Source of the DNA: Leucoraja erinacea
Taxonomy: Eukaryota
Length of the DNA stretch: 64,000 nt
Assembly (NCBI RefSeq): GCF_028641065.1
Contig: NC_073384.1
Coordinates: 39,246,001 to 39,310,000 of the forward strand
Direction: 5' to 3'
The translations under genes were made by a program, and so were the position numbers. Positions within the stretch are counted from its first letter, which is position 1, and every line of letters starts with the position of its first letter. Of the stretch, positions 9,718 to 63,251 are shown piece after piece. The notes below the pieces were generated by a model. The model was given only the letters and a program-made list of their open reading frames with translations, made no database searches and had not been told where the DNA came from.

Positions 9718-11326
9718 CAGTGGCTTGCAAAAGTATTAATTCCTTGAACTTTTCCACATTTTGTCACGTTACAACCACAAACGTAGATGTATTTTATTGG
9801 GATTTTATGTGATAGACCAACAAAAAATGTGGCGCATAATTGTGAAGTGGAAGGAAAATGATACATGGTTTTCAAATTTTTTTACAAATAAAATACTGAA
9901 AAGTGTGGCGTGCAAAAGTATTCAGCCCCCTTTACTCTGATACCCCTAAATAAAATCCAGTGCAACCAATTACCTTCAGAAGTCACTTAATTAGTAAATA
10001 GAGTCCACTTGTGTGTAATCTAATCTCAGTATAAATACAGCTGTTCTGTGAAGGCCTCTGAGGTTTGTTAGAGAACATTAGTGAACAAACAGCATCATGA
10101 AGCCCAAGGAACACACCAGACAGGTCAGAGATAAAGTTATGGAGAAGTTTAAAGCAGGGTTAGGTTATAAAAAAATATCCCAAGCTTTGAACATCTCACG
10201 GAGCACTGTTCAATCCATCATCCGAAAATGGAAAGAGTATGGCACAACTGCAAACCTACATGGCCGTCCACCTAAACCGACAGGCCAGGTAAGTAGAGCA
10301 TTAATCAGAGAAGCAGCCAAGAGGCCCATGGTGACTCTGGAGGAGCTGCAGAGATCCACAGCTCAGGTGGGAGAATCTGTCCACAGGACAACTATTAGTC
10401 GTGCATTCCACAAATCGGGCCTTTATGGAAGAGTGGCAAGAAGAAAGCCATTGTTGAAAAAAAGCCCTAAGAAGTCCCATTTGCAGTTTGCCACAAGCCA
10501 TGTGGGGGACATAGCAAACATGTGGAGGAAGGTGCTCTGGTCAGATGAGACCAAAATTGAAGTTTTTGGCCTAAATGCAAAACGCTATGTGTGGCGGAAA
10601 ACTAACACTGCACATCACCCTGAACACACCATCCCCACTGTGAAACATGGTGGTGGCAGCATCATGCTGTGGGGAAGCTTTTCTTCAGCAGGGACAGGGA
10701 AGCTGGTCAGAGTTGATGGGAAGATGGATGGAGCCAAATACAGGGCAATCTTGGAAGAAAACTTGTTAGAGGCTGCAAAAGACTTGAGACTGGGGCGGAG
10801 GTTCACCTTCCAGCAGGACAACGACCCTAAACATACAGCCAGAGCTACAATGGAATGGTTTAGATCAAAGCATATTCATGTGTTAGAATGGCCCAGTCAA
10901 AGTCCAGATCTAAATCCAATTGAGAATCTCTGGCAAGACTTGAAAATTGCTGTTCACAGACGCTCTCCATCCAATCTGACTGAGCTTGAGCTATTTTGCA
11001 AAGAAGAATGGGCAAAAATTTCAGTCTCTAAATGTGCAAAGCTGGTAGAGACATACCCCAAAAGACTTGCAGCTGTAATTGCAGCGAAAGGTGGTTCTAC
11101 AAAGTATTGACTCACGGGGGCTGAATACTTTTGCACGCCACACTTTTCAGTTTTTTATTTGTAAAAAAAATTGAAAACCATGTCATTTTCCTTCCACTTC
11201 ACAATTATGCACCACTTTGTGTTGGTCTATCACATAAAATCCCAATAAAATACATTTATGTTTGTGGTTGTAACGTGACAAAATGTGGAAAAGTTCAAGT
11301 GGTATGAATACTTTTGCAAGCCTCTG
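9718..11326 (+). mobile_element. Full-length Tc1/mariner DNA transposon (IR/DR type)
   Basis: TA TSD (9716-9717, 11327-11328); ends CAGTGGCTTGCAAAAGTATT...AATACTTTTGCAAGCCTCTG; about 210-bp TIRs with an inner direct repeat GTGGCGTGCAAAAGTATTCAGCCCC; 1609 bp. Confidence 0.97.
10097..11110 (+). CDS. Tc1-like DD34E transposase, uninterrupted 337-aa ORF
   Basis: Paired-like HTH, GRPPK, WSDETK, QQDNDPKH, SPDLNPIE; 34 residues between the second D and the E. Confidence 0.96.
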   Translation: MKPKEHTRQVRDKVMEKFKAGLGYKKISQALNISRSTVQSIIRKWKEYGTTANLHGRPPKPTGQVSRALIREAAKRPMVTLEELQRSTAQVGESVHRTTISRAFHKSGLYGRVARRKPLLKKSPKKSHLQFATSHVGDIANMWRKVLWSDETKIEVFGLNAKRYVWRKTNTAHHPEHTIPTVKHGGGSIMLWGSFSSAGTGKLVRVDGKMDGAKYRAILEENLLEAAKDLRLGRRFTFQQDNDPKHTARATMEWFRSKHIHVLEWPSQSPDLNPIENLWQDLKIAVHRRSPSNLTELELFCKEEWAKISVSKCAKLVETYPKRLAAVIAAKGGSTKY

Positions 11327-24867: not shown

Positions 24868-27117
24868 TAGAGTCAGGATGTTTAGGCGCTAAAAAACTGA
24901 AATAGGCAGGCAAAAAGGCATAATAAATTACAAAAAAACACAAAAAAGGCAATTATTGACAAAAATAAGGCATAAAAAGGCATGTATTTCCATCACCAAA
25001 ATATGGTCAAAAATGATAATATAAAGATATTCTACATTAAATTACCAAAGTTGCCTGGTTGCACATATTTACTAGCATTTTTTTCAAATTATCTGGTGTT
25101 AAACTATGCCGTCTGTCAGACAGAATATGCTTCAGTTGTGAAAAACTTCTTTCTACCTCGGCTGAGGTCACTGGTGCATACCCGAAACAAGCTACCGACT
25201 CTATATTCATGTCGATATCTTGTGCATTACAACTACCTTTGAGAACTTTAGCTATGTTTTGTATTTCTTCAAGATCTTTGTTAGCGAAAATCGTTCCCTC
25301 ACATTTTCCTTGTATATCTTTACCTACATCACCAGGAATTTTACGGATATCGTCAGTTACTTTGTTGAAAACCTTCAAGTTATTCACTAATGTTTCGCCA
25401 CATTTCTCAAGGGAAGTGATAGCTTGTGGGAAGTTTGCAAAAATGGAAGCAATAAACACAAGATCGTGGTGGAGGGACTTTTTCTGCATGATTTCACTGA
25501 CGATCCTGACTGCAGCAGATTCTTCTTCTTCAAAACAATTGACGATTTATTTTGCCATTTCCTTGAACAACTGCACACGTGACGGTGCTTTGAGGAAGAT
25601 TTTCTTGACATTGGAAACTAAGCGATTGACATTTGGAAACAAGCTACGTTTGTGCTTGGCAATTCTATGAAGTCCTTGAGCAGAGCATGTCAAATGCAAC
25701 ATTTTGGGGAATAAAACTTTAAGAGCACGAGCAGGTTATTTCATGTATGGAGCTGCATCAGTCACAAACAGAAGAACATTCTCGTGTTTTATACCTTCTG
25801 GCCAAAGTACAGCAAGTGCAGATGTAAACAGCAGAGCAATAGTTGAACTGACTTCTCCAATCCAATGTCAACAAATACTCCTTTGATGGTTGACCTGCCT
25901 CCAGTGTAATGATGACAGCATCGGTTGTCTCGCCTATTGGGATCCATATTTTGTTGCATGCAACTTAATCTCTAATTTTCTGCACAACAATATTGAAGTT
26001 GCTGTCAACATAATTTTTCCGTAATGATTACTCGCTCAATATATGTTCCTCTGTGTATTTCTCTAAAAAATCTCTGATTTGTTTTCCAATTTCCACAGTG
26101 GCATTCCAGCATCAATGAATGCCTTGCACAGATCACTCGAAAACTCAGACTTGCGACTGGAGCCAGCAGTAAATGTAGTGATGCTTGGGTATTTCGCTTG
26201 GGTAGTCTACACCCCACTGTATCAACAGAATGGTGAATCTCTGGAACTCTCTGCCACAGAAGGTAGTTGAGGCCAGTTCATTGGCTATATTTAAGAGGGA
26301 GTTAGATGTGACCCCTGTGGCTAAAGGGATCAGGGGGTATGGAGAGAAGGCAGGTACGGGATACTGAGTTGGATGATCAGCCATGATCATATTGAATGGC
26401 GGTGCAGGCTCCAAGGGCCAAATGGCCTACTCCTGCACCCATTTTCTATGTATATATGTAACATTGACTTTTCTAATTTTAGATAGCCTTTGTTTTCTCC
26501 CTCCTCCCCCTCACCCTTCCCAGCTCTCCTTCTAGTCCTACTGTCTCCGCATCTTTCTTTCATTTTTCCCGGAGAGTCGGAGGCTCCCCCGCGGCCACAA
26601 CAGTCTGAAGAAGGGCTTCTGCGGCGGCGACCTGAAATGGTCGCCTGACACCACTTCCTGGAATTTCTCCATAGACCCGGTGTGCGATCTCACCCCGCTG
26701 ACTTTTGGCCGCGGGACTTGCCATCGCCAGCTATGACTTTTATGTCTACCTTTTATTTTTCCAGCATCTGCATGTTTCTTTCTTAATTATAGATCTTGGA
26801 GAAGGTTGAACCAGCGGGCAACGGCATGAACGAATGAACGGCCGATGGTGGCACCCCGGGTTTTGCCCCGGTGGTGGAAATATTCTTGTAAGTTATACTA
26901 TGTCAACACATTAATAATAACTTATTAATATTAATGTGTTAACATGGAAAACATCATTGTAATCACGGTACAATTAGAGAAAATAGCACAACCTTTTAAC
27001 AAAATGCCAAAAAATGGCTGATTTAGGCACTCGATCGTGACAAAGGCATTATCTTGGTGAAATCATCAAAAAAGGCATGAAAAGGCACAAGGCATTTATG
27101 GCAAAATCCTGGCTCTA
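24868..27117 (-). mobile_element. Degenerate hAT-superfamily DNA transposon in qpct intron 4
   Basis: 8-bp TSD GTCATTAG (24860-24867, 27118-27125); TIRs TAGAGTCAGGAT / ATCCTGGCTCTA; minus-strand transposase remnants VTDAAPYMK, HLTCSAQGLH and dimerisation motif APVTSAEVERSFS; interrupted by other repeats at about 26228-26790. Confidence 0.92.
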
Positions 27118-38227: not shown

Positions 38228-39400
38228 TGTAGCGAGACCAAGCAGGTAGAGCAAAATGTTCTTTATTAACGAAACACTCAAACAGACGAAAAACTCTACA
38301 CGTGTTTCACTTGGTCAGGAATAAACGATCTAAGCTCCTGTCGCCGTGAGGAACACTAGCTACTGAACATACTGAAAAGCCTGCGAACGAACCCTCGGTC
38401 ACGTGACAGTCCCGACCAATGATGAGGGTTCTGAACGCCCAGCTTCACCACTAGGTGCGGCTACATGACCCCCCCTCCCCCCCCCCCCCCCCCCCCCCCG
38501 TGGTGCTGGACATTGGAAGTCTGGCAGGGGGATGCAGGCCCCCCCCCCCCGAAAAAGGTCAAAACGCCAAAACAGTAGGGACGATAGGTCGCGGTTGCCC
38601 CGTGGAGACGTCACAGAGGACAGTAACGCCCAAGGGTCCTAGTGGGATGTCCTCCAGTATCAAACCCGAAACGGCGGTGCGATAGGGAAGCATCTCGTCC
38701 CCGTCCCGTTGCGCAGCGGCCTGGTCAATTCCCGAGGCTAAAGTCAGATAGCATTAATGGCAGGGTGAGATAAGGCGTCAGCGACCTGGTTATGCTTACC
38801 CGCCACATGCTGAATACAGGTGGTGAACTCCGGTATGAAAGCCAAATGTCATTGCTGGCGTGCTGACCAGGGATCGGAGTCCAAATAAGCGGCGAGGACT
38901 ACACTGATGGCGGTGTCAGGGCGGTACCGTGTGGGACACAGGGACAAACGCGGCAGGGAGAACAGGCACAACAGTCAAAGGCGGGAGGGCCGGCGGATGA
39001 CCCCTTCAACGAGGCTGGGACACCAACACTGGGCAGTCGACATCGAGGTGGACTGGCTTAAGGCGGGCCACCGAAACGACCTCCTGACAACCCCTGACAT
39101 CCAGAACGAAAGTCGTGACGCCGAGTTGCCCCACCCTGAAAGGACCCTCGTAAGGGCGCTGCAATGGTGTCCGGTGCGAGTCCCTACAAAAAATAACAAA
39201 TTGGCAGTCTTTGAGGGCAGGCGGGACATAGGAAGGGGCAACCCCGTGGTGAGAGATTGGGACAGGAGGCAGCTTGCCCACCTGCTCATGGAGGTGCACC
39301 AGCACAGACGAAGGGCGGTTACTGCTGCCCCCGTGCCACTGGAACTAATCGCCGGGTACTTTAAGCGGGGAGCCATCAACCAACTCGGTGGGGCTGTGGG
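38228..39400 (-). mobile_element. Gypsy LTR-retrotransposon remnant: LTR, polypurine tract and pol fragments
   Basis: LTR 38228-38465 with TGTAGC...GCTACA termini and a minus-strand AATAAA; adjacent C-run is a minus-strand PPT; integrase C-terminal PLQRPYEGPFRV...VSVARLKP (39006-39305); RNase H end IQHVAGKHNQVADALS (about 38770-38880). Confidence 0.85.
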
Positions 39401-40280
39401 GCACCCTCCTACTCCTTCCAAAGTCCACAATCAGTTCCTTGGTTTTGCTGGTGTTGAGGGCCAGGTTATTGCGCTGGCACCATATGGACAGTTGCTCGAT
39501 CTCTCTTCTATACTCTGACTCATCCCCATCAGTGATACGCCCCACAACAGTGGTGTCGTCAGCGAACTTGATGATGGAGTTCGCACTGTGACTGGCTACG
39601 CAGTCATGAGTATAGAGTGAGTACAGCAGGGGGCTGAGCACGCAGCCTTGAGGTGCTCCCGTGCTGATTGTTATCGAGGCTGACACATTTCCACCAATAC
39701 GAACAGACTGTGGTCTGTGAATGAGGAAGTCGAGGATCCAATTGCAGAGGGATGCGCAGAGACCCAGTTCTGTGAGTTTGGTAACTAGCTTGGAGGGGAT
39801 GATTGTGTTAAATGCCGAGCTGTAATCGATGAATAACAGCCTGACATATGAGTTTTTGTTGTCCAAGTGGTCCAGGGCGGAGTGGTGAGCCAGCGAGATC
39901 GCATCCACTGTTGATCTGTTGTGGCGATAAGCGAACTGCAGTGGGTCCAGGTTTTTGTCGAGGTAGGAGTTGATTTGCTCCATGATCAACCTCTCAAAGC
40001 ACTTCATCACCACCGGCGTTAGTGCCACTGGTCGATAGTCATTGAGGCACGTCACCTTACTCTTCTTGGGCACTGGTATAATTGATGCCCTTTTAAAGCA
40101 GGTGGGGACCTCAGAAGTGAGAGGTTAAAAATGTCCGTACAAACTCCAGCCAGTTGGTCCGCACAGGTTTTTAGAACACGACCGGGTATACCATCAGGTC
40201 CAAGTGCTTTTCGGGGGTTCACCCCTCTGAAGGATTTCCTCACGTCGACCTCTGTGACTGAGACTGAGACGCCATCAGGA
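39400..40280 (-). mobile_element. Rex1/Babar-type RT fragment
   Basis: ORFs 39345-40073 and 40052-40384: [40 protein letters not shown]; frameshifted; joined to a Gypsy remnant. Confidence 0.88.
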
Positions 40281-46572: not shown

Positions 46573-46804
46573 GTTGTTAGTGTTTAAAAAATGTTGAGAA
46601 TCTCTCTCCTGTCAATCACACCATGAAGGCCACACCTTTTCCAGTGGAAGGGGGAGGGATTATAAAACCAGGATGTGTGGGTGTGGCTCAGTCTCTGTAT
46701 GATGGGGAGGGAGAGGTCACAACTCTGAGCTGTGAATCAACTGAACACACTGAATGTCTACTGAACAGTGTGTGGTGTTTTGTGTGGTTTTATGGTGGTT
46801 TCAC

Positions 46805-47295
46805 CTTGCTTGAAATGGTATAAAACTGCATTTGAATATGGTGGCCTTGCAACCTGCATGAAATGGTATGAAACTGCATTTGAATGTGGTGCTGTTGCAC
46901 CCTCCATTAAATGGTATGAAACTGCATTTGAATTTGGTGGCCATGCACCCTCCTTGAATGGTATGAAGCTGCACTTGAATTAGGTGGCCTTGCACCCTGC
47001 TTGAAGTGGTATGAATCTGCACTTGAATTTGGTAGTCTTGCACCCTGCTAGAAGTGGTTGGAAACTGCACTTGAATTTGGTGGCCTTGCACCCTGTTTGA
47101 AGTGATAGGAAACTGAACCTGAATTTGGTGGCCTTGCAGCCTGCTTGAAGTGGTATGAAACGGCACTTGAATTTTGTGGCCTTGCACACTGCTCGAAGAG
47201 GTAAGAAACTGCACTTGAATTTGGTGGCCTTGCACCCTGCTTGAAATGGTAGGAAAATGAATTTGAATTTGGTGGCCTTGCACTCTGTTTGAAAT
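46805..47295. repeat. Minisatellite with unit of about 45 bp inside the Helitron-like element
   Basis: About 10 diverged copies of CTTGAAGTGGTATGAAACTGCACTTGAATTTGGTGGCCTTGCACCCTG. Confidence 0.9.
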
Positions 47296-48994
47296 GGAAT
47301 TTCAAGGAATAGCTGTGAGTCAACTGCCAACCCACCAGCTGTGAGTGAGCTGCCAGCACATCAGGCTTGAGGGAATGAGTTGCCACACCAAGAATCTATT
47401 TGGCCCACAATGTCCATACTAGCCCTCTGGAGACCAGTAGTCCCTGCAGCCAACAACACCCATACCAGCTCTCCAGAAAGCCCGCCCTCCACTGGCCACC
47501 AATATTGGAATTGGTGGAGATGTGGAATATTGCGTTGGGGGACCAGCCCTCCCGTGTGAACATGGGACCCAACGGGTCCCACTTAGTTTAGCAATTTATA
47601 GAAATGTATTAACATTTTCTGGACTTTTTTTTTAATTATGTGGGCATTTTTCTGGGACGTAGCCCTTTCATTAATCATGTGAAATCTGTAGCTGAGGATG
47701 CCATTTCAAGTCCTCTGCCAAATGAACCTTATATTTTAAGACAGCCATACAAAACTTAAAACATTTAAGGAGGTATATGCTTAGACACCACTTACGCAAC
47801 AAGGGAATTGGTTCAGATCCCTTCAGCCCTTTGTGTTTGTACCTGTCAAGAAAGCACTAACCAGCCTACTCCCACATTCCAAAACCCAGCAGGTCATGGC
47901 TCGTTGAGCAAATTTTAATTGTGATGAGGATTTCTTACAAGTTTAGGCAGTGAGCTCCAACTTGTTTTTTTACTTTAAATCTTCACTACCTGATTTTTCT
48001 ACCTCTCTGTATTTATTAAGCAGATGCTCTTCATTATTAAATGCACTTTGATTGACTCTACCCTTGCTTCAAGAAAATATCCAATCTTTCCTCATAGCTC
48101 CAATTTTCAGCATTGATATATCTCTTCAGTTCTCTCTCCAGTGAAATTATTATATTTCCTGTAAACTACAGAATTATGTGCTGTAACTCTGGACTAACAG
48201 ATATGCTACGCATTTCAAGGATATTCTCCCAATTTGTATATTCTCTGCCTCAGCATAAAAGGCAAACTTTTGATACAATTAATCCTGATCCAAAACATCA
48301 CCTGCCCATTTCTTCCACAAATGCTGCCTGATCCGCTGAGTTCCTCCAGCACTTTGTGTTAAGCTCTCAGTTCTAGCATCTGCAGTTCCATATTTTTTGG
48401 TTCTATTCTTGGAAAATAAACTCGAGTGTGTTCGTTTTTTATAGTTTTGTTAACCTGCAGCACATTTTTTAATGATTTGTATATTTGTACTCCAAGAGTA
48501 CAAATATAATCCTATGGAATGGAAGGATATGGATCAGGTTTAGGCAGAGGTAATGCGTTTTACATCATTCTTTATGGGCCGAATGGCCTGTTCAGGCCTA
48601 TACTGCTCTATGTTCCAATGTTAACACATAACTAATTGGATACAAGCAGTGAACTCTCAACATGAACAACCCCACGTACAGATGAGCTCCCATAACTCTA
48701 TTAAATTCAAAAGTCTAACGAAGGAACAACAGTAAAACTGAACCAAAACGTCACCTATTCCTTTTTTCCGGAGATGCTGCCTGACCAGCTGAGTTACTCC
48801 AGCATTTTGTCTATCTTCAGTGTAAACCAGCACAGCAGAACTAGTTCCCTCTCTACACCTTCTAGTAATTATTAGTTCTTATCACTCTTGTATGTTTTTG
48901 ATGTCATTTATTTAAATAATGTGGAGGTATGGTGAGCAAATCGAATGGCTCGTGTGCATTTATGGATTCCTGTAAAAAGGTTCAATGCTTCAAC

Positions 48995-49949: not shown

Positions 49950-50900
49950 AAGAGTCACCAAATGCACATCAGCATAACCAGTCGCTGTCCACGGTCAATT
50001 AACCAGTGATCCAAAACAAACCCACCAGCAGCCACGTTGAAGCCACACGTCAGATTGCACAACGTGGGGATCCTGGCAGCTCTTCCATCCCCGCCCCCCC
50101 CCCCCCCCCCCTCTGTGGACCAGCCGATTGGCTCTCCGCGCTGCCGATCACTCACGCACGCCATGGTAACGAACACGTCCCGCCCCCTTTGGCGGGTCCG
50201 CCCCGCCCCCTTCTGCAGCGCGACACTCCCATTGGTGCAACGTGAAATCCCGCCTCCTCCGCTATTGGCCAGCGTGGACGTCAATCCCAGCTCCAACCGC
50301 CTCCCACCGACCCCGAGACGTCAATCGCGGCATCAACCGCCTCGCACTTATTCCAGGCTTGAATGTGGCGGCGTCAAAGGGGGAGGAAAAGGAAAGTATA
50401 TCCGCACTTTCTACTTACTCGGCCGATCAGGATGGTCATGCCGACTCCATGTTAGACGACTTTTATTCCCCGTCAACCGGTGCATCCTGTTAGCTGGGAG
50501 CCGGGGTCGGCGTGGTCCGCGCGTTGCTGTGGTAACGCCCCCACCTCCCCAGTGAAGGCTGAGCCTTCCGTCACCCCGGTGGTTCTGTTGCCCCGGTGAC
50601 CGGCCGGTTGGTCGGTCGGTCCGTGCACCTGCCCGTTGCTGCGCCGCCGCCGCCGCCGCTCCCCTCAGCTTCAGCCTGCGCCATGGGTCACGGACTGAAG
50701 TGCGGGGTAGCCATCTCGTTCTGCGCCGTTTTCATGGCTTATTGGTACCGGCAGCAGGTAGACCGCGAGCTGGACTCGCGGCTGGAGACGGTGCTGTCGT
50801 CGCTGCTGAAAGCCGAAAGGAAAGTGGACCTGAACCGGCGGCCTCGAGTGGCAGTAGGTGAGGAAACGGAGGTGCGATCGGTCGACATGTTCGATGAGGG
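49950..50900 (+). promoter_or_regulatory. CpG island and promoter of the ADPGK-like gene
   Basis: High GC and CpG density; three ATTGG (CCAAT) boxes near 50126, 50231 and 50264; GC box CCGCCCCGCCCCC near 50198; GACGTCA twice (about 50277 and 50317); RFX X-box-like GTTGCTGTGGTAAC near 50523; (GCC)n before the ATG. Confidence 0.8.
50683..50857 (+). CDS. adpgk: ADP-dependent glucokinase (adpgk2-type) exon 1
   Basis: Kozak gccATGG; MGHGLKCGVAISFCAVFMAYWYRQQVDRELDSRLETVLSSLLKAERKVDLNRRPRVAV(G); N-terminal hydrophobic anchor and RVAVG motif; gtgagg donor, phase 1. Confidence 0.9.
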
Positions 50901-53785: not shown

Positions 53786-55829
53786 ATCACACAAATTGTT
53801 GTCACATGCACCAAGATACAGTGAAAAACCTTTTTTGTCTGCTATCCAGGCAAATCATACCATACATAAGTAGATTAAGGGGAAAAAAGAGACTGCAAAA
53901 TAAAGTGTTACAGCTACAGAAAAATTCAAGATTAAAAAAAGAAGGGCTGCAATGTGGTAAATTGTGAGATTAGGAACTCCACCTTTGTATCTGAGAGGCC
54001 CATTCACGAGTTTGATACCAACAGGGAAGCAGTTCTTGAACCTGCTGGTACATGCTCTCATGCTTTTGTAGTTTCTTGTTGGACTTCTTGGGATTATGGT
54101 GTTGAATAGAAAAGATAGACACAAAATTCTGGTGTAACTCAGCGGGTCAGGCAGCATCTCTGGAGAAATTGAATAGGTGACGTTTCGTTTCAGGACCCTT
54201 CTATCAAAAAATAGGAGTCTGACATACTGTAAATGTCCTTGCTATCTAAATGTTCCAGTGATGAGTGTAGAGCCAGGAAGATGACATCTGTTGTTTTTCA
54301 CTGTATCTCGGGAGACCTACTAATACTCTGCCTCCTCACAGTTAACTATTTCAAGTCCATAACTCGCTGACAGTCACAAGTAAATGTGGTGGTAAACAAA
54401 ATGTATGGCATTATTGCCTTCATCATTTTGGGCATTGTATAAAAATTGGCAAGTCATGTTGCCGATGAATAGCAATTTTTGTGTAAACATATATTTGAGT
54501 TCTTTAGGTCTGGGTAGGAAATACTTCAGTGCATGAACTTAGAAAGTCTCCAGCCTAACATCAGAAAGCTGTAAGAGTGGATGTCGATCCAGAAATTGAG
54601 GGGGAATGACACAGACATTTGAAGGAACGTTTTTCAGGATATTAGGGCCAGAGTTTGCAAGCATGGGGGTTGTTTTGGTATTGGGGCAGGTGACTAGTCT
54701 ATTTAAAATTGTTAGATTCCAACTTGCACTGCCTTTTACCCTCTGCTATATTATCTTGCATCTATATTCCCATCACCATGCCTTTTTGTATTTAATCGTA
54801 TTTAATTATTTCTCTTTTTAATATTGATGGTTGATCTATCATAAACCTACTTTTATCATCAATTGAGCGGCGTGACTTCTAGTTGGGGACCAGGACTACA
54901 GACACTTTATTTCAACTGAATGCACTGTGCAAGTTTGTCAGTTTTATGCATTTTGATAATCATGGTTAATAAGTTATGTAAACATATACCAGTATCAAAG
55001 TAAATCAGAGAATAGCATCGTAATTTAAAAAAAAAATGTACTTTGTACATGGTTAGAGTGCAAGCTCTGCACATGTTTTTTAATGATAAGGGAAATAATG
55101 AACAAAGTCTAGATAAATAAAGTGGCAGCAAAAATAGAGAAGAAAAGATCCATGTGCCCTTGGCGCTCGTCAGCCAAGCTTGGGAATATAATATCATGTA
55201 AAAATTCATAAGTTCTAGAAGCAGAATTAGACCATTTGGCCCACCAAGTCTACCATTCAATCATGTCTGATCTATCTTTCCCTCTTAACTCCATTCTCCT
55301 GCCTTCTCCCCATAAACCATGACACCTTTGCTAATCAAGAATCTGTTAACCCCGCCTTAAAAATATCCATTGACTTGGCCTCCACAGCCGTATGTCGCAA
55401 TAAATTCCACAGATTCCGCACCTTCTGACTAAACAAATTCCTCCTCATCTTTCTAAAGGTACAACCTTTTATTCTGAGGCTATGGCCTCTGGTCCTGGAC
55501 TCTCCCAATAGTGGAACCATCCTCTCCACATTTACTCTATCCAGGCCTTTAACTCTTTGGTAAGTTTCAATGAGTTACCCCTCATCCTTCTAAACTGCAG
55601 TGAGTACAGGCCCAGTGCCATCAAACACTTATCATATGTTAACCCAATCATTCCTGGATCTTTCTCATAAGCCTTCTCTGGATCCTCTCCAACATTAGCC
55701 CATCTTCCTCAGATATGGGGCCTCAAAGTCGCTCACAATACTCCAAATGCGGTCTGACCGTAAATTAGAAAGCCTCAGGATTACATCCCTGTTTCTATAT
55801 TCTAGTCCTCTTGTAATAAATGCTAGAAT

Positions 55830-57028
55830 AAGCGAGTTTGGTATTCCGAAAAACACAAGAAATCATGGGATTTGTCAAAGGTCAAACGCTATAAATAAAA
55901 ATCGAACGAAACAAAGATTGAGTGAGTATAGTTTGGGTCTTTTTTTTAATTATAATTTTTCAGTGGGAGACTGGGTGGGGGCAAGAGACTGGGGCGGGGG
56001 GGGGGGGGAGACCGGGCGGGGGAGGGGGGGGGAGACCGGGCAGGGGCGGGGGAGAGACCGGGCAGGGGCGGGGGAAGACTGGACCGGCTCTCATCCGCAG
56101 TCAGGACCGTCCGTGGTTTCCCCCACGCAAGTATCCCGTCTCTGGTTTCCCCCCCCCTAACTCGAGGGAGACGTCCGGAACGACAGGACTCTGGCCCAGC
56201 ACAAACCCACAGCCAGCGCCAACTCCAGCCCAACCCTGCTCCAACTGAACAGGAACCCGCTCCCCGATGGGCCGTTACAGTGACAAGTGCCAGTTCGCCC
56301 CTGCTTTCCCTCAGCCGCCACCCCAAGTACAAGATGTACCTTGCACAGCACTGGCTTCTGCCCCTACGGTACCCGCTGCCACTTCTCCCACAACCCCGAT
56401 GAGGAGAGAGGGCTCCGGCCTCACCTGTGCCAGAACGCCAGCCTGGGCTCAGCCACCCCCAGCCCGGCGCTAGACTGTGCCGCGCTGCGGGCAGCCTTCA
56501 GCCCGACCTGGAGTTGGAGCTGGCCTGGACTCTGGGCTTGGGGCTGGGCAAGGGAGAGGGAGGAGGTTGCTGCTTCAGCCAGCACCACCAACATCAGCTC
56601 CAGCGGGCGCCCGGCCTGCCCATGGCCGACAGGAGCCCATCCGCAGACTCTCTCTCCAACCAGGACGATTCCAGCAGCAGCGGTTCTGAGTCGCCCGGTT
56701 TCGAGCAGGGCCGGCGGCTGCCCATCTTCAGCAGGATCTCGGTGTCGGACTGAGGGGAGGGGGGTAGAAGTGGAGGACTGCAGGGCCGGCAGAGCCGAGC
56801 TGGAACTAGTGGCTGCAAAGCCGGCTGCAGGTCCGGGGCCGCCCCTGAACACCTCGGGACAAGGACGGGGACGGCCCAGCAACAACTCGAGCACCTGCAG
56901 CGACGGAGAGCTGACCCCGACCACGGACGCAACGCAAGCCTGCACACAATGCAGCACCACCGTTGCTGAGACTTTATAGCTAGTGACCTATGACCTGGGC
57001 ATGCGCAGTCGGAATACTGAACTCGTTT
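55830..57028. mobile_element. Non-autonomous TIR DNA element carrying the ZFP36-like fragment, inserted in a CR1 copy
   Basis: Left end AAGCGAGTTTGGTATTCCGA (55830-55849) versus reverse complement of right end AAACGAGTTCAGTATTCCGA (57009-57028), 17/20 identical; AAT on both flanks; CR1 sequence resumes on either side. Confidence 0.75.
56270..56753 (+). pseudogene. zfp36: ZFP36/tristetraprolin-family (tandem CCCH zinc finger) gene fragment with frameshifting deletions
   Basis: Across shifted frames: RYSDKCQFA / LLSLSRHPKYK / CTLHSTGFCPYGTRCHFSHNPDEER, then the C-terminal NOT1-binding motif SGSESPGFEQGRRLPIFSRISVSD* ending at TGA 56751-56753. Confidence 0.88.
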
Positions 57029-59224
57029 AATGCATTTGCCTTCCTCACTACCAATTTGACTTGCAAATTAACTCTCTGGGAACCCTGCACCAGCACTTCC
57101 AAGTCCCTTTGCACCTCGGATTTCTGAATTCTCTCCCCATTTTGAAAATAGTCTACGCCTTTTTACTAATGCAATTGCAAATCATTTAACGTGTTTTATC
57201 TCATTTACAGTTCCACATGCTTTGGTCACAGATTGAGAAGCCTGCTGGACCTACTTTAAAAAGTGCTGATTGAGCAATGATAATTTGTTTATTACTGGTT
57301 TTAAATAGGTTGTTCTTGAGTTTGATTCCTAAATATTATTTTGCCTAATTTGGATCATTAATTTGCATCATGTTTATTAAATTTCTGTTGAACATTGGAT
57401 ACCTGGGCTGCCACTTTCAACTATATTAACATTGAAGATGTTTATATTGGGGCCAGTATTGCTGCTGAAAGTTGAAGGTGAAGCTCACAAACTTGGGTAT
57501 TGGATGTTTTTGATGCATTTTATAACTCATCCAGAGTTATTTATTTATTGGGAGAATAATTCTAATCACAAATTAATAACATTTAATGCAAGACATTGAC
57601 TGAAATGAGCTGGACTTTTGTCTCTATGGCAGTATATAATGATGAATAAAATTATATTGAAGATCTCAGTGGCAAGCTCGTTATAGTTATAGGTTGCTAA
57701 TTAAGACCAGGAAAAAATGTGGTGATTTGACAATAAAGTAATTACAAAAAATATATAGACTTGTCTATTCCTTACATTTTTGTTGTAGCTCATTCAGCAC
57801 TCTGTATTAAACAGTCGAAAAGATCAATCTTGCCTATTATCAGCCATGCTCTGTCCTGCCCCTCCAATCTTCCAGGTTTCTTTCACATCCCGTTGCAATC
57901 AGACTGAAGAAGGGTTCCAACCTGAAACGTCGCCTATCCATGTTCTCTAGAGATGCTCCCTGACCCGCTGAGTTACTCCAGCATATTGTGTCTTTCTTAT
58001 TTATTTTAAACTTGTGGTTATTCATCATTTATGTATAAAATATAGGATTTCATTAAAAATTAACTTTGCAGCGAGTAGATTATTTGCTTTCTCAGTGACA
58101 GCTTTCACCTTGCATGAAAATTCCAAAGTTATGATTAGTTTTGTTGTGTGATGGCAATGGATGTTGACTGTTTCAACATAATTCACACTCCAAGATATGG
58201 GCCCCAGAATATTCCTGCTCTTATTTGCATCCCCCAGACCTCACTGCCGGTTAACTGAGCTTTGATGTGCTTCAGTTCATATGATTTTCCTGAGGTAAAT
58301 TTTGGATGGTTCTCGTGTCCCTTTCCTGTGTTGAGCAAGTTCATACACTGACTGTTTACCCTTGTGATCAGGATGATATTTATTTTTGTTACCGATGAAT
58401 ATACAGTTGACATTTATCATGGAAAATGGCTGTTAACATTCACAGTCACTGATAAAAAAAATCATATTTTTTAACAGATGAAACACATATTTATTCTTGG
58501 ACTTGAACAGATAAAATTATTAAATAGCCATAGAAAGGGAAGCTGCCATTAACAGCAAAACACAGCCTTGAGAGGAAGTAATGCGCTGGATGATAATTTT
58601 AGAAAGATAGCTTCTAAAATATCACATGGCTGCAAGAACAAAATACATGGACATAAAATCCAGAAAGAAAACCGAAGTGTTGAATAAAAAGTAATGCAAC
58701 AAAAAAAACTTTGGTAAATTTGTAAGAGAAACATTGAATTTAAGGCAAATGTATGATCTATCTACAGTCCTTTATCAATATAATAACATGTATTTAACAA
58801 CACAAATATTTTATTTCATCTGACAATTAAAGCTATTTATAGACGGAAATCATTTTTTGCTCTGGTAGTGATTAACAAAGCACTATTCCTGCACATAAAG
58901 GCCATTTAGCTTCTCCACTGAAGTTCCCTTGTATATGATAATGTTAATGATGAATCTTGTAAATGAGGAAGGCTTTTTGACCTATTAATAGTTCAGTGAT
59001 TTTAATAGAAATATGTTATCTGAAAAGTCGCACATTTGTTTGCATAGTTAGGTGTATATCAATTAAATAAAACAAGATTGGAAATCTGACTTTAGAATTA
59101 GAATTGTTTTCCTTACTCTCCTTAGCTCCAGCCTAATAATGCTGTAATCTGAACTACCCCAATTTAGAGCCCTCCTCAAAGGTCCAGACTGATCCTTATT
59201 CATAACTTTCTGAAAAGTGATCAC

Positions 59225-59468: not shown

Positions 59469-61502
59469 TGTTCTCACAATACTCTCTCACAAGTTTCCAG
59501 TTCGGGGAAAAAAGCCTTCCAGCATCAATCCATTTCTGTATCCAGTTATCGAGGTCCAGTGCCATCATGTTGCCTGTCAGGAGCTCCAGCTGAGCACAGT
59601 TACCACATGTGTAATTCTCAGGGATACTGGAAGTTTCCCTGATTTCCCACATTCCACGGTAGTAGCAGAGCACTCCCCTTACTGCCAATGTCACTGCATT
59701 AAAGCTAAAGAGGAAGTGGTGAAAAAGGAGATCTTGACTTAGCTTACCTTTCACTTCCACTAAGCCTCTTCATTGCAGCCTCTTTAGCAAAAACCTCAGC
59801 ACTTATCTTGAAACACAGTTCTTGCACCTCAAACACAGCTTCTCCCATGTAAGATGTAATAAAAGGGAACTGCCAATGTTGGTTTACACCATAGATAGAC
59901 ATAAAATGCTGGAGAACCTCAGCAGGCCAGGAAGCAACTCGGGAGAAAATGGATCGGTGACGTTTTAGGTCAAGAGTGAAGAGGGATCCTAACCGGAAAT
60001 GTCACCCTTCCATTTTATCCAGAGATGCTGCCTGACCCGCTGAGTTACTCCAGCATTTTGTGTCTATCGCTTCCAAAGATGGCTGTTCCACTGGTTCCTG
60101 CCTTTTATACACTACCAGGGGCAGCCAATGCCAGAATCTAATGGCTGATTTTTAAGTCTTTGCTGCTCCTCTCAGCAGTGTATCTCATGGCTGAAACTGG
60201 CATGGCCTTGTGTTAATGGCTCCTTAGTCTCCTTGGCTGCTGCACTAGAGGCGAGGATATCTTTCACATGAGGCCCATTTACATTCAGTCTCTGATGGGC
60301 AAGTTGCTTTGCCTGATACTGCGCTCCACAATTATTGCTCCAAGCTATACACTATTTCACACTGTTCCAAGCTCCATCACTCCTCCGTGAATTCACTTTG
60401 TGGATATGAAATTGATTCAAGGATATTCTCAAATTCTCCTTAGTCTCCTTGCTCTTGGCCCACAACAGCTCCAAGGAGCAATCATGATAGCAATGATAAC
60501 CTTTAGTATAGAAGCTCTGTATAAATGGCAGGAAGGGAACTCCCAGTCCCACCTGCAAAACTACCTGTGGTATAGTCTGTGGGTCCCACATTGGCCTCAC
60601 CTTGGAACTCTCAAAACTGGGGTGGGTGAAAACCGTCTTTGAACAAGCAAGACTGCTGAAGGTTCAGAAAAGGCTATACAGTACCCTTTCCCTATTGCAG
60701 TTCCAGCCATTATATTTTTCAGGCCATAGCACTATTCTGATTGGTTTTCTGCTTCTGTTCCTTTAATTGTTGATGTTTTTCAGTTTCTTTAGTCCTTTTA
60801 GGCCTCTGGTCTTGGCTTACTATTTTTATCATGCCTACCCCAAGATCTTAGCTTTGTTGTGTTTCACTGTTCCCTCAGGCCAATGTCTTTGAACCCAGCC
60901 TGGGAATGATGCCAGATCTTTGTATCTGTTGCGATTCTTGCACTATACCTTGCACGACCCGCAGCTTATCAAAATGAAGGCACATGACTACATACATTGC
61001 ATTACTTTTGAGCCCAAAGTTGGTTGATTCAAATATCACTTTACAACAAAAATCCTTAGATGTGACATACCTCTGCAGTTTGTCATGAAGAAATAATAGA
61101 GCTACACTAAAGGTGGTGATTTCTTTCAGGTGAGATACTAAACTGAGATTATCTTGTCCCTCAAGCTTGTGTGTTTCAAAGAACTGTTTCACAGTAGACT
61201 TTGGGATTTCCCTGAGTACCTGATGAATATTGTGTAGAAAGGAACTGCAGATGCTGGTTCATAACAAAGATAGACACAAAGTGTTGGAGTAGCTCAGCGC
61301 GTCAGGCAACATCTCTGTAAAAAAAGGATGGGTGACTTTTTTGGTCAGGACCCTTCTTCAAACCCTTTTTCTCCAGAGATGCTGCCTGACCGTCTGAGTT
61401 ACTCCGGCTCTTTGTGTATCTACCTGAGGAATGTTATTTTAGGTGCTGCATTTGCTAAATTTTACTAATCATCTCTTTTTTTCCCCTATGGTCTTGCTGT
61501 AG

Positions 61503-61662
61503 GTTTTGGAGGCTGTCTTGATATTGTTGCAGATGGAATTGCTCTCCTTAACAAAGCGGGCATCAAGCCAAGCAGGAATCCTGTGCACCATAATTACATC
61601 ACATCAGAGGAACAATTGGCTGAAAGCTTTGCATACTTCTTTCCTTCAGGAGCTGCATCAGA
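61503..61662 (+). CDS. adpgk: ADP-dependent glucokinase exon 2
   Basis: tgtag acceptor, gtaagg donor; (G)FGGCLDIVADGIALLNKAGIKPSRNPVHHNYITSEEQLAESFAYFFPSGAAS(E); CxD and GAAxER motifs of ADPGK; phases match exons 1 and 3. Confidence 0.92.
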
Positions 61663-62039
61663 GTAAGGAAATTACATGAATGAGACTTACTAAATTAAAT
61701 GTGTACTTGGTTGTTGTAACAAAAATATATCTTGGCGATGATGAAAACATCAGTGTAATTGGACAATAGAGCAACATAATATCGCCAGTGACCCGGGTCT
61801 GATCCTGTCCTCGGGTGCCGTCTGTGTAAAGTTTGCGTGTTCTTCCTGTGACAGCATGGGTTTCCTCTGGGTGCTTCGGTTTCCTCCCACATCCCAAAGA
61901 TATGAAGAGTTTGTAGGCTAATAGGCCTCTGTAGATAGCCCCTAATGTATAGGAAATAGATGAGAAAGTGGGATAACACTGAACTAGTGTGAACGGATGA
62001 TGAATGGTTTGCATGGACTCTGTGTTGCCTGCGCTGAGC

Positions 62040-63060: not shown

Positions 63061-63251
63061 GCGCTTTATTTCCAATGGGACACTGTTTCGTAAACTGGTG
63101 AAAGCCACTCAAGGTCTTCCTCGAGTACGATGGTCGTTGGGTGGAAATGCACCAGTCATGGCAAATCGTCTCGCACAGGAAGGATGTGAAGTGCTCATGG
63201 GGAGCCGTCTAACGCCTGACCTCATTGAAGTCCTTCAAGAGCATGTAACCG
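63061..63251 (+). CDS. adpgk: ADP-dependent glucokinase exon 3 (gene continues beyond the window)
   Basis: ttttcag acceptor; (E)RFISNGTLFRKLVKATQGLPRVRWSLGGNAPVMANRLAQEGCEVLMGSRLTPDLIEVLQEHVT; GGNA motif; probable donor gtttgt at 63252. Confidence 0.9.

Follow-up and report, generated by a model that had tools for sequence, protein, structure and literature searches.

A terminal-inverted-repeat element carrying a ZFP36 coding fragment in a Leucoraja erinacea ADP-glucokinase gene: a probable old, multicopy Pack-TIR family of skates

The stretch of Leucoraja erinacea DNA considered here (NC_073384.1, positions 39,246,001 to 39,310,000 of assembly GCF_028641065.1; 64 kb in all, hereafter the window) includes part of an ADP-glucokinase gene, which we take to be adpgk2, and in this gene a non-autonomous element with terminal inverted repeats (TIRs) carries a captured piece of ZFP36 (tristetraprolin) coding sequence. 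The position of the element in intron 1, already proposed in the original prediction that was made from the letters of the window, is supported, because exon 1 stops near 50857, and ADP_PFK_GK is matched by the first exon found beyond it (near 61500-61663) and by one at 63061. The element occupies 55830-57028 (1199 bp) and is bounded by symmetrical 20-nt TIR arms matching at 17 of 20 positions, with AAT flanking both ends and a subterminal inverted pair of 22 nt (82%) at 55874-55895 and 56973-56994. An arm match of at least 17/20 has a chance probability of about 2e-5 in a 21x21 register window at the breakpoints. The combined end pattern gave exactly two matches in the window and none in 100 shuffles, a count which, the pattern being derived from these same two arms, speaks only for the absence of a third end in the window.

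Of 24 public sequencing runs listed, four were aligned on 55450-57400 at 85% likeness. Three of them are contig sets, from organism A (run X1), organism B (X2) and organism D (X9); the fourth (X24) consists of raw reads of oligo-dT RNA, again from organism B, and ~5% of it was used. Contig depths are given as multiples of the depth of the unique flank, which served as the single-copy reference (19.1 in X1, 25.1 in X2 and 11.5 in X9). The host sequence interrupted by the element is a CR1-type long interspersed nuclear element (LINE) fragment on the minus strand. Its left part (55200-55829, the 5' limit being approximate as it was tested from 55200 on) aligns to window paralogues at 42k, 45k, 35k and 30k, reaches 680-62,000x and holds a minus-strand frame (55335-55574) resembling what is presumably the end of CR1 ORF2, while its right part (57032-57165) keeps a high depth up to 57165 and then gives way to unique intron DNA at 1.0x, with loose ends at 57162. 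Two CR1 paralogues of the window (45k and 30k) are uninterrupted at the insertion site, and the joint from 55823-55826 to 57031 is present in contigs of all three contig runs; these empty sites hold 3-4 nt (CAT/ACAT) between 55825 and 57031. The flanking AAT copies at 55827-55829 and, by symmetrical end comparison, at 57029-57031 fit this length as the target-site duplication (TSD), since AAT implies 3 nt, and AT with one later substitution 4 nt; TA also flanks 55831-57027, but a TA duplication, as made by Tc1/mariner elements, is disfavoured because it would leave 6 nt. The exact TSD, AAT or AT, rests on one locus.

A scan of the element in six reading frames detected no transposase family, and zf-CCCH alone passed the cut-off. 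The element contains no run of six or more A; its one AATAAA falls within the left end (55894), and its sole long T-run is at 55940. Neither an Rfam match at gathering score nor a tRNA was detected, so a tRNA-headed short interspersed nuclear element is unlikely. The earlier description of a 1199-bp TIR element that splits a CR1 copy, encodes no transposase and bears no poly(A) was thus accurate.

The captured coding fragment lies at 56273-56753 on the plus strand and corresponds to codons ~119-289 of skate ZFP36 (P0001). It comprises, as had been predicted, the end of finger 1, the RHPKYK linker, a damaged finger 2 and the C-terminal motif with its stop, represented by the peptides MGRYSDKCQF, SLSRHPKYK, GFCPYGTRCHFSH and RRLPIFSRISVSD, the last closed by the stop codon 56751-56753. 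Three frameshifts (near 56297, 56335 and 56501) and small deletions have occurred, and the fragment measures 481 nt vs 516 in the parent. The last 83 aa of the cargo show 87-89% identity to skate proteins and 75% to sawfish, the cargo carries skate-specific features that the sawfish lacks, and its best protein relatives belong to Rhinoraja, Amblyraja and Leucoraja. Protein comparison and RNA reads identify the parent of this internal, non-transposon sequence as skate ZFP36, present as one intact protein per skate species (XP_078287002.1, XP_032870229.1 and XP_055519735.1, labelled L2-A-like or L1-like by NCBI). Judging from the C-terminal motif and from non-shark relatives named plain ZFP36 (coelacanth, Poecilia), tristetraprolin itself is the likeliest orthologue of this parent.

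Immediately after the stop, 56754-56770 (plus strand) is the probable start of the ZFP36 3' untranslated region (UTR), and the parent homology ends at about this point. Parent-type RNA coverage drops ~15 nt past the stop codon (depth ~37 in bin 56704-56769 and 2.6 in bin 56770-56835, with 11 RNA reads still over 56766), so that little 3'UTR was captured; the predicted 3'UTR start holds for these ~15 nt and fails beyond them. Neither poly(A) nor ATTTA was present, and flanking repeats did not exceed 9 nt. The cargo is also without intron sequence and spans no known intron position; assuming the two-exon structure of ZFP36, it would lie in the single large second exon. Compared with skate ZFP36 it lacks the N-terminus and half of finger 1 has three frameshifts and can form no tandem zinc finger. 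Since RNA binding by tristetraprolin needs both fingers, according to the accessible text of PMC8484758, and since this copy is frameshifted, its protein fragment would be unable to bind RNA as tristetraprolin does and is most likely neutral.

The depth profile shows a repeated family. The left end (55830-55911, plus strand, including the left TIR 55830-55849 and the subterminal repeat) reaches 5,937x, 8,360x and 6,871x at 55860 in X1, X2 and X9, and ~6,000-9,700x over 55830-55845 as back-calculated from the bin mean; the right end (56911-57028, minus strand, with its subterminal repeat and the right TIR 57009-57028) reaches 324-523x at 56930 and 2,800-4,000x in bin 56968-57033, five flank positions included. 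Overall the ends stand at ~3,000-9,700x in all three contig runs, and the depth rises at the TIR tip and drops to 1.0x in the unique flank. The original prediction would have failed had these inverted repeats occurred nowhere else as element ends; the high repetition of the ends in all three contig organisms speaks for it on this point. In the later cargo (56374-56769) six bins gave 65-585x, 64-593x and 62-314x in the three runs. Read as orders of magnitude, these depths suggest thousands of ends and tens to hundreds of cargo copies.

Contig counts point in the same direction. At cargo sites with a majority variant, the non-window base was present in 12-77 distinct contigs per run (among the sites listed, 40 rows), and the X9 contigs concerned carried ~1-5 single-copy units each on average (13 rows). 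Ordinary ZFP36 paralogues, of which a vertebrate genome presumably holds few, cannot for that reason explain such counts in the skate-specific C-terminal region. Among the 24 pieces listed, 5 were orthologous, 1 was CR1 flank and 18 were paralogues, with a median divergence of 13% from this copy, a value inflated by CpG decay.

Several paralogue joints connect the ends with the cargo side. These run from 55910 to 56215 (X1, X2), from 55939 to 56502 (X2), from 56651 to 56913 (X2), from 56781 to 56911 (X1, X2) and from 56887 to 56984 (X1, X2), and one variant is without 56386-56709; the last three joints leave out all or part of a low-copy spacer (56771-56910, 8-55x) that is missing from several paralogues. 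The joints look like internal-deletion derivatives of one TIR-plus-cargo ancestor. The RNA reads separate the copies from their parent: at 56457, 56558 and 56588 all reads (17/17, 15/15 and 20/20) differ from the window base kept in multicopy DNA, the RNA base at these three sites is absent or at most 3% in the multicopy DNA of X1 and X2, and the base seen in RNA is found at roughly single-copy depth at 56457 in X2 and at 56588 in X9. We take the RNA over the cargo to be mRNA of the parent, and the copies to form a single lineage separate from today's parent. Where the private segment described below is single-copy, RNA depth was close to zero; on unique intron it was zero, and there is no sign of expression of this copy in the X24 sample; on the end bins it was ~90-120, and family ends thus occur in poly(A) RNA.

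The internal junctions of this copy recur in two organisms, X1 covering 55881-56232 (2 differences, 8 gap letters) and X2 covering 56739-56948 without a difference, so the copy is common to both and an assembly chimera is unlikely, with the reservation that one of the runs could be the window's own source. In the unique flank 0/268 (X1), 1/268 (X2) and 13/263 (X9) differences were counted. Since the copy divergence of 13% exceeds the distance of 5% to organism D and the family depth is similar in D, amplification probably predates the split from that organism; likewise, because the cargo shares the skate-specific features and is closer to skate than to sawfish proteins, capture would postdate the split from sawfish. 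The element had been described earlier as mobile; the family is old and not evidently mobile now.

Between the left end and the cargo lies a segment private to this copy (55912-56214), with a depth of 0-9x outside the G-run bin (four bins to 56175). It includes a 22-bp G-rich minisatellite at 55984-56079 (Tandem Repeats Finder), has no second match in the window, and is replaced by 39 other letters in an X2 paralogue, with the same joint in X1. The suggestion that 55960-56166 might be a ZFP36 intron was not borne out: 56110-56175 has a depth of 0.9x in X1, equal to the orthologous copy alone, and no parent intron at 85% likeness or more was seen for it in that run, within the limits set by filters and GC dropout. 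The best local scores of this filler against the N-terminus of the parent protein were matched by shuffled sequence for four of five parents; the exception was sawfish P0003, with 65 in a collinear frame where shuffles reached 57 at most (0/200), this being Pro/Gly-rich sequence and the shuffle crude. The following family linker (56215-56272, plus strand; 96-224x in bin 56176-56241) terminates in an ATG (56267-56269) that shares the reading frame of the ZFP36 fragment. Atlas matches for 56161-56280 were all below 0.8, and a PDB search gave no significant match. As a separate observation, 56195-56270 shows weak inverted similarity to cargo 56508-56541 (74% over 34 nt, the extended score being reached in 1 of 300 shuffles), which may be a template-switch scar or chance.

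One part of the family has a later history of its own. The piece 56242-56373, with linker sequence, the end of finger 1 and RHPKYK, is re-amplified in organisms A and B, as seen from the depth at 56275 (12,619x in A, 8,127x in B and 61x in D) and from the single-copy units per contig (166, 110 and 1.2). It is a young, homogeneous, lineage-specific re-amplification, ~10,000-fold by depth; because in A its depth exceeds that of the left end, intact elements are a less likely form than a tandem array or some other carrier. The piece may represent a nascent satellite of genic origin.

A Logan contig of 1385 nt encodes a 180-aa protein (P0021) that starts MGCYRDRCQF, shares the M-G-x-Y-x-D junction and matches 7 of 10 residues at the in-frame ATG junction of the element, and past the junction tracks the Rajidae parent at 98%. 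Most likely P0021 comes from a chimeric contig; a corrected or intact element copy is possible. As the junction supplies an in-frame ATG and P0021 has exactly such a shape, a one-finger product is conceivable, and it may be imagined that intact or parent-corrected copies make a one-finger ZFP36 that retains the C-terminal deadenylase-recruiting motif and competes with the real protein, or that RNAs of the ~10,000-fold repeat act back on the parent gene. We consider this improbable, though either would amount to a transposon-made modulator of mRNA decay in a vertebrate. In searches for element-derived open reading frames, the shorter-protein search gave 1 of 20 candidates (P0017), the near search 11 of 1,510 matches, all of them full-length genes, and the representatives search 2 matches. 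P0017 was rejected, being parent ZFP36 with an internal deletion and probably unrelated. This Logan contig, in which the deletion joins finger 2 to the C-terminal motif of skate ZFP36, resembles a template-switch product. Element paralogues have a deletion of a similar kind that is not identical with it (56385 to 56710).

Taken together, these data make it probable, in our judgement with good confidence, that the element belongs to an old, multicopy Pack-TIR family of skates carrying ZFP36 sequence; capture and spread by a non-autonomous TIR element, as originally proposed, agree with a multicopy cargo and with paralogues that link ends to cargo, and copy number and structure together point to transposition as the means of spread. 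Under this reading a non-autonomous family bearing TIRs of ~20 bp and a subterminal repeat would have spread to the order of thousands of copies, as the depth supports, and one member would have picked up ~500 bp of internal ZFP36 coding sequence through template switching or gap repair, probably at the DNA level. This may have been a single capture in the skate stem lineage, after the sawfish split. The ZFP36-carrying member would then have been mobilised in trans to tens to hundreds of loci, yielding the internal-deletion derivatives, for which depth, contig counts and paralogue junctions speak. One copy evidently entered the CR1 fragment in intron 1 of the ADP-glucokinase gene with duplication of AAT, probably gained the private 300-bp filler and decayed as a neutral pseudogene fragment. 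In some skates the finger 1/linker piece would later have been re-amplified ~10,000-fold, probably as a tandem array or in another carrier.

Several points weigh against this interpretation. Summed contig depth is not copy number, being raised by overlapping unitigs and lowered by the 85% cut-off, and it is to be read as an order of magnitude only. Most end-to-cargo joints are represented by 1-2 contigs with sides of 20-58 nt, and joints below 95 likeness or with short sides are less reliable. The depth dips at both transitions from cargo to ends (8-55x over 56770-56901). Another insertion site with its own TSD was absent among the joints and loose ends listed, as was a contig across the flank-TIR junction among the pieces listed; a transposase partner was not found in the metagenome, prokaryote-genome and viral collections searched, and the protein searches gave no cluster of element-derived open reading frames.

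There is some room for the view that the ZFP36 fragment multiplied apart from the TIR ends, in tandem arrays, a Helitron or another carrier, and is only nested in a miniature inverted-repeat transposable element at this and a few loci. The burst of 56242-56373 in X1, which surpasses the left-end depth, implies that at least a sub-piece moved without these ends, and the low depth between cargo and right end and the roughly tenfold excess of ends over cargo are in keeping with it. But in X1 and X2 both ends are connected with the cargo side by paralogue joints, the right subterminal depth of 324-523x matches the cargo peaks of 275-593x, and the X9 contigs are of dispersed type, near single-copy and without the burst; independent multiplication is accordingly rather unlikely.

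The manner of capture admits a further alternative, in which a truncated ZFP36 retrocopy landed inside a TIR element that was later amplified or not. The cargo is free of intron sequence, as an RNA route would have it, and by introns the DNA and RNA routes are indistinguishable; the parent homology, however, ends just past the stop, with none of the 3' hallmarks sought there (poly(A), ATTTA, a flanking repeat above 9 nt). A LINE-made retrocopy should retain the mRNA 3' end, as is established for target-primed reverse transcription, and neither an mRNA 3' end with poly(A) nor a TSD of its own, as a LINE-made processed pseudogene would have, was seen; we regard capture via RNA as very improbable. 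As a last alternative, the locus might be an assembly chimera or a Pack-TIR made by gap filling and present once, the type that prevails in Tan et al. 2021 (PMC8277862), where, in the accessible text, only 4 reference-genome Pack-TIRs (1.4%) were multicopy; no piece among those listed runs over the whole stretch. Yet this reading has already been largely refuted: each site has dozens of diverged cargo contigs in every contig run, the internal junctions recur almost exactly in X1 and X2, and no second ZFP36 source lies elsewhere in the window. We give it hardly any weight.

The window holds other mobile and repeated sequences. At 10085-11110 (plus strand) a 341-aa open frame of a Tc1/Sleeping Beauty-like transposase (HTH_SB, HTH_Tnp_Tc3_2, DDE_3) looks nearly intact and young, and no link to the ZFP36 element was seen. 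At 25037-25546 (minus strand) there is a hAT transposase C-terminal dimerisation fragment, and at 46793-47300 a tandem array of ~48-bp units, which reads open as a 16-residue repeat on the minus strand. Long open reverse-transcriptase-like frames on the minus strand at 1289-2779 (496 aa) and 39345-40124 (259 aa) are presumably of a non-CR1 LINE.

No literature report of such ZFP36 family or TIR strings was found, most subscription papers, Repbase and Dfam lying outside the search, and the TIR family may be catalogued there. The TIR patterns gave 0 matches in JGI metagenomes and 0 in prokaryote genomes, collections not expected to contain skate DNA; the one match, in a viral contig of 48 kb, lacked an inverted partner in the 3 kb to each side and was attributed to chance.

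As to superfamily, Han et al. 2015 (PMC4482050), in the parts available, give for the PHIS group an ANT TSD and 11-40-bp TIRs for Pangu and an AT TSD in an A|AT|T site for ISL2EU, with termini of both usually starting AG or GG, and they list no vertebrate with Pangu. The AAT TSD and 20-bp TIR of the skate element fit Pangu at this one locus, and AT as in ISL2EU also fits the empty-site length; in contrast to both, the two skate ends start with AA, and the skate TIR motifs had no match in the accessible supplements of that study. The TSD may thus resemble Pangu or ISL2EU, but the termini differ and no transposase was found, and the superfamily is left unassigned.

The family would show plant-like transduplication in a vertebrate, with coding sequence of a conserved regulator at tens or hundreds of loci, and offers a tractable set (breakpoints, copy tree, TSDs) for the capture-then-transpose model; such copies also confound the probing, annotation and read mapping of ZFP36 in skates. 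As in plant Pack-MULEs and Pack-TYPE elements, gene-fragment capture appears to have been followed by amplification, and in rice 36% of Pack-MULEs are multicopy (cited via PMC8277862). Unlike Pack-MULEs, the skate element with its 20-bp TIRs and 2-3-bp TSD has no long MULE-type TIRs or 9-10-bp TSDs such as are described for FB4.

Among animals, Tan et al. 2021 (PMC8277862) recorded 370 Pack-TIRs in 100 genomes, 4 of them multicopy (3 frog, 1 alligator), the illustrated multicopy case being 3 copies carrying 5'UTR and the elephant shark having 0, and the words skate and ZFP36 had no match in the accessible text or supplements. The original view that vertebrate capture is little documented must be modified, because animal Pack-TIRs are documented there; the accessible text portrays those of vertebrates as rare, as single-copy for the most part and as arising without transposition, and skates and the apparent carrier type lie outside this one survey. 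Its criterion of young elements would probably miss copies as old as these. Like animal Pack-TIRs, the skate locus consists of a non-autonomous TIR element with a TSD around host-gene sequence, with an intact parent elsewhere, and in the features tested (TIR sequence on both sides of the cargo, a TSD, an identifiable parent gene, several copies that share ends and cargo) it agrees with the class of multicopy transposition after capture. Unlike the cases in the accessible part of the survey, its cargo is coding, the copies number tens to hundreds and the carrier is not hAT-looking; since animal Pack-TIRs are already known, the novelty of the skate family lies in its coding cargo and in a scale above the vertebrate cases published there.

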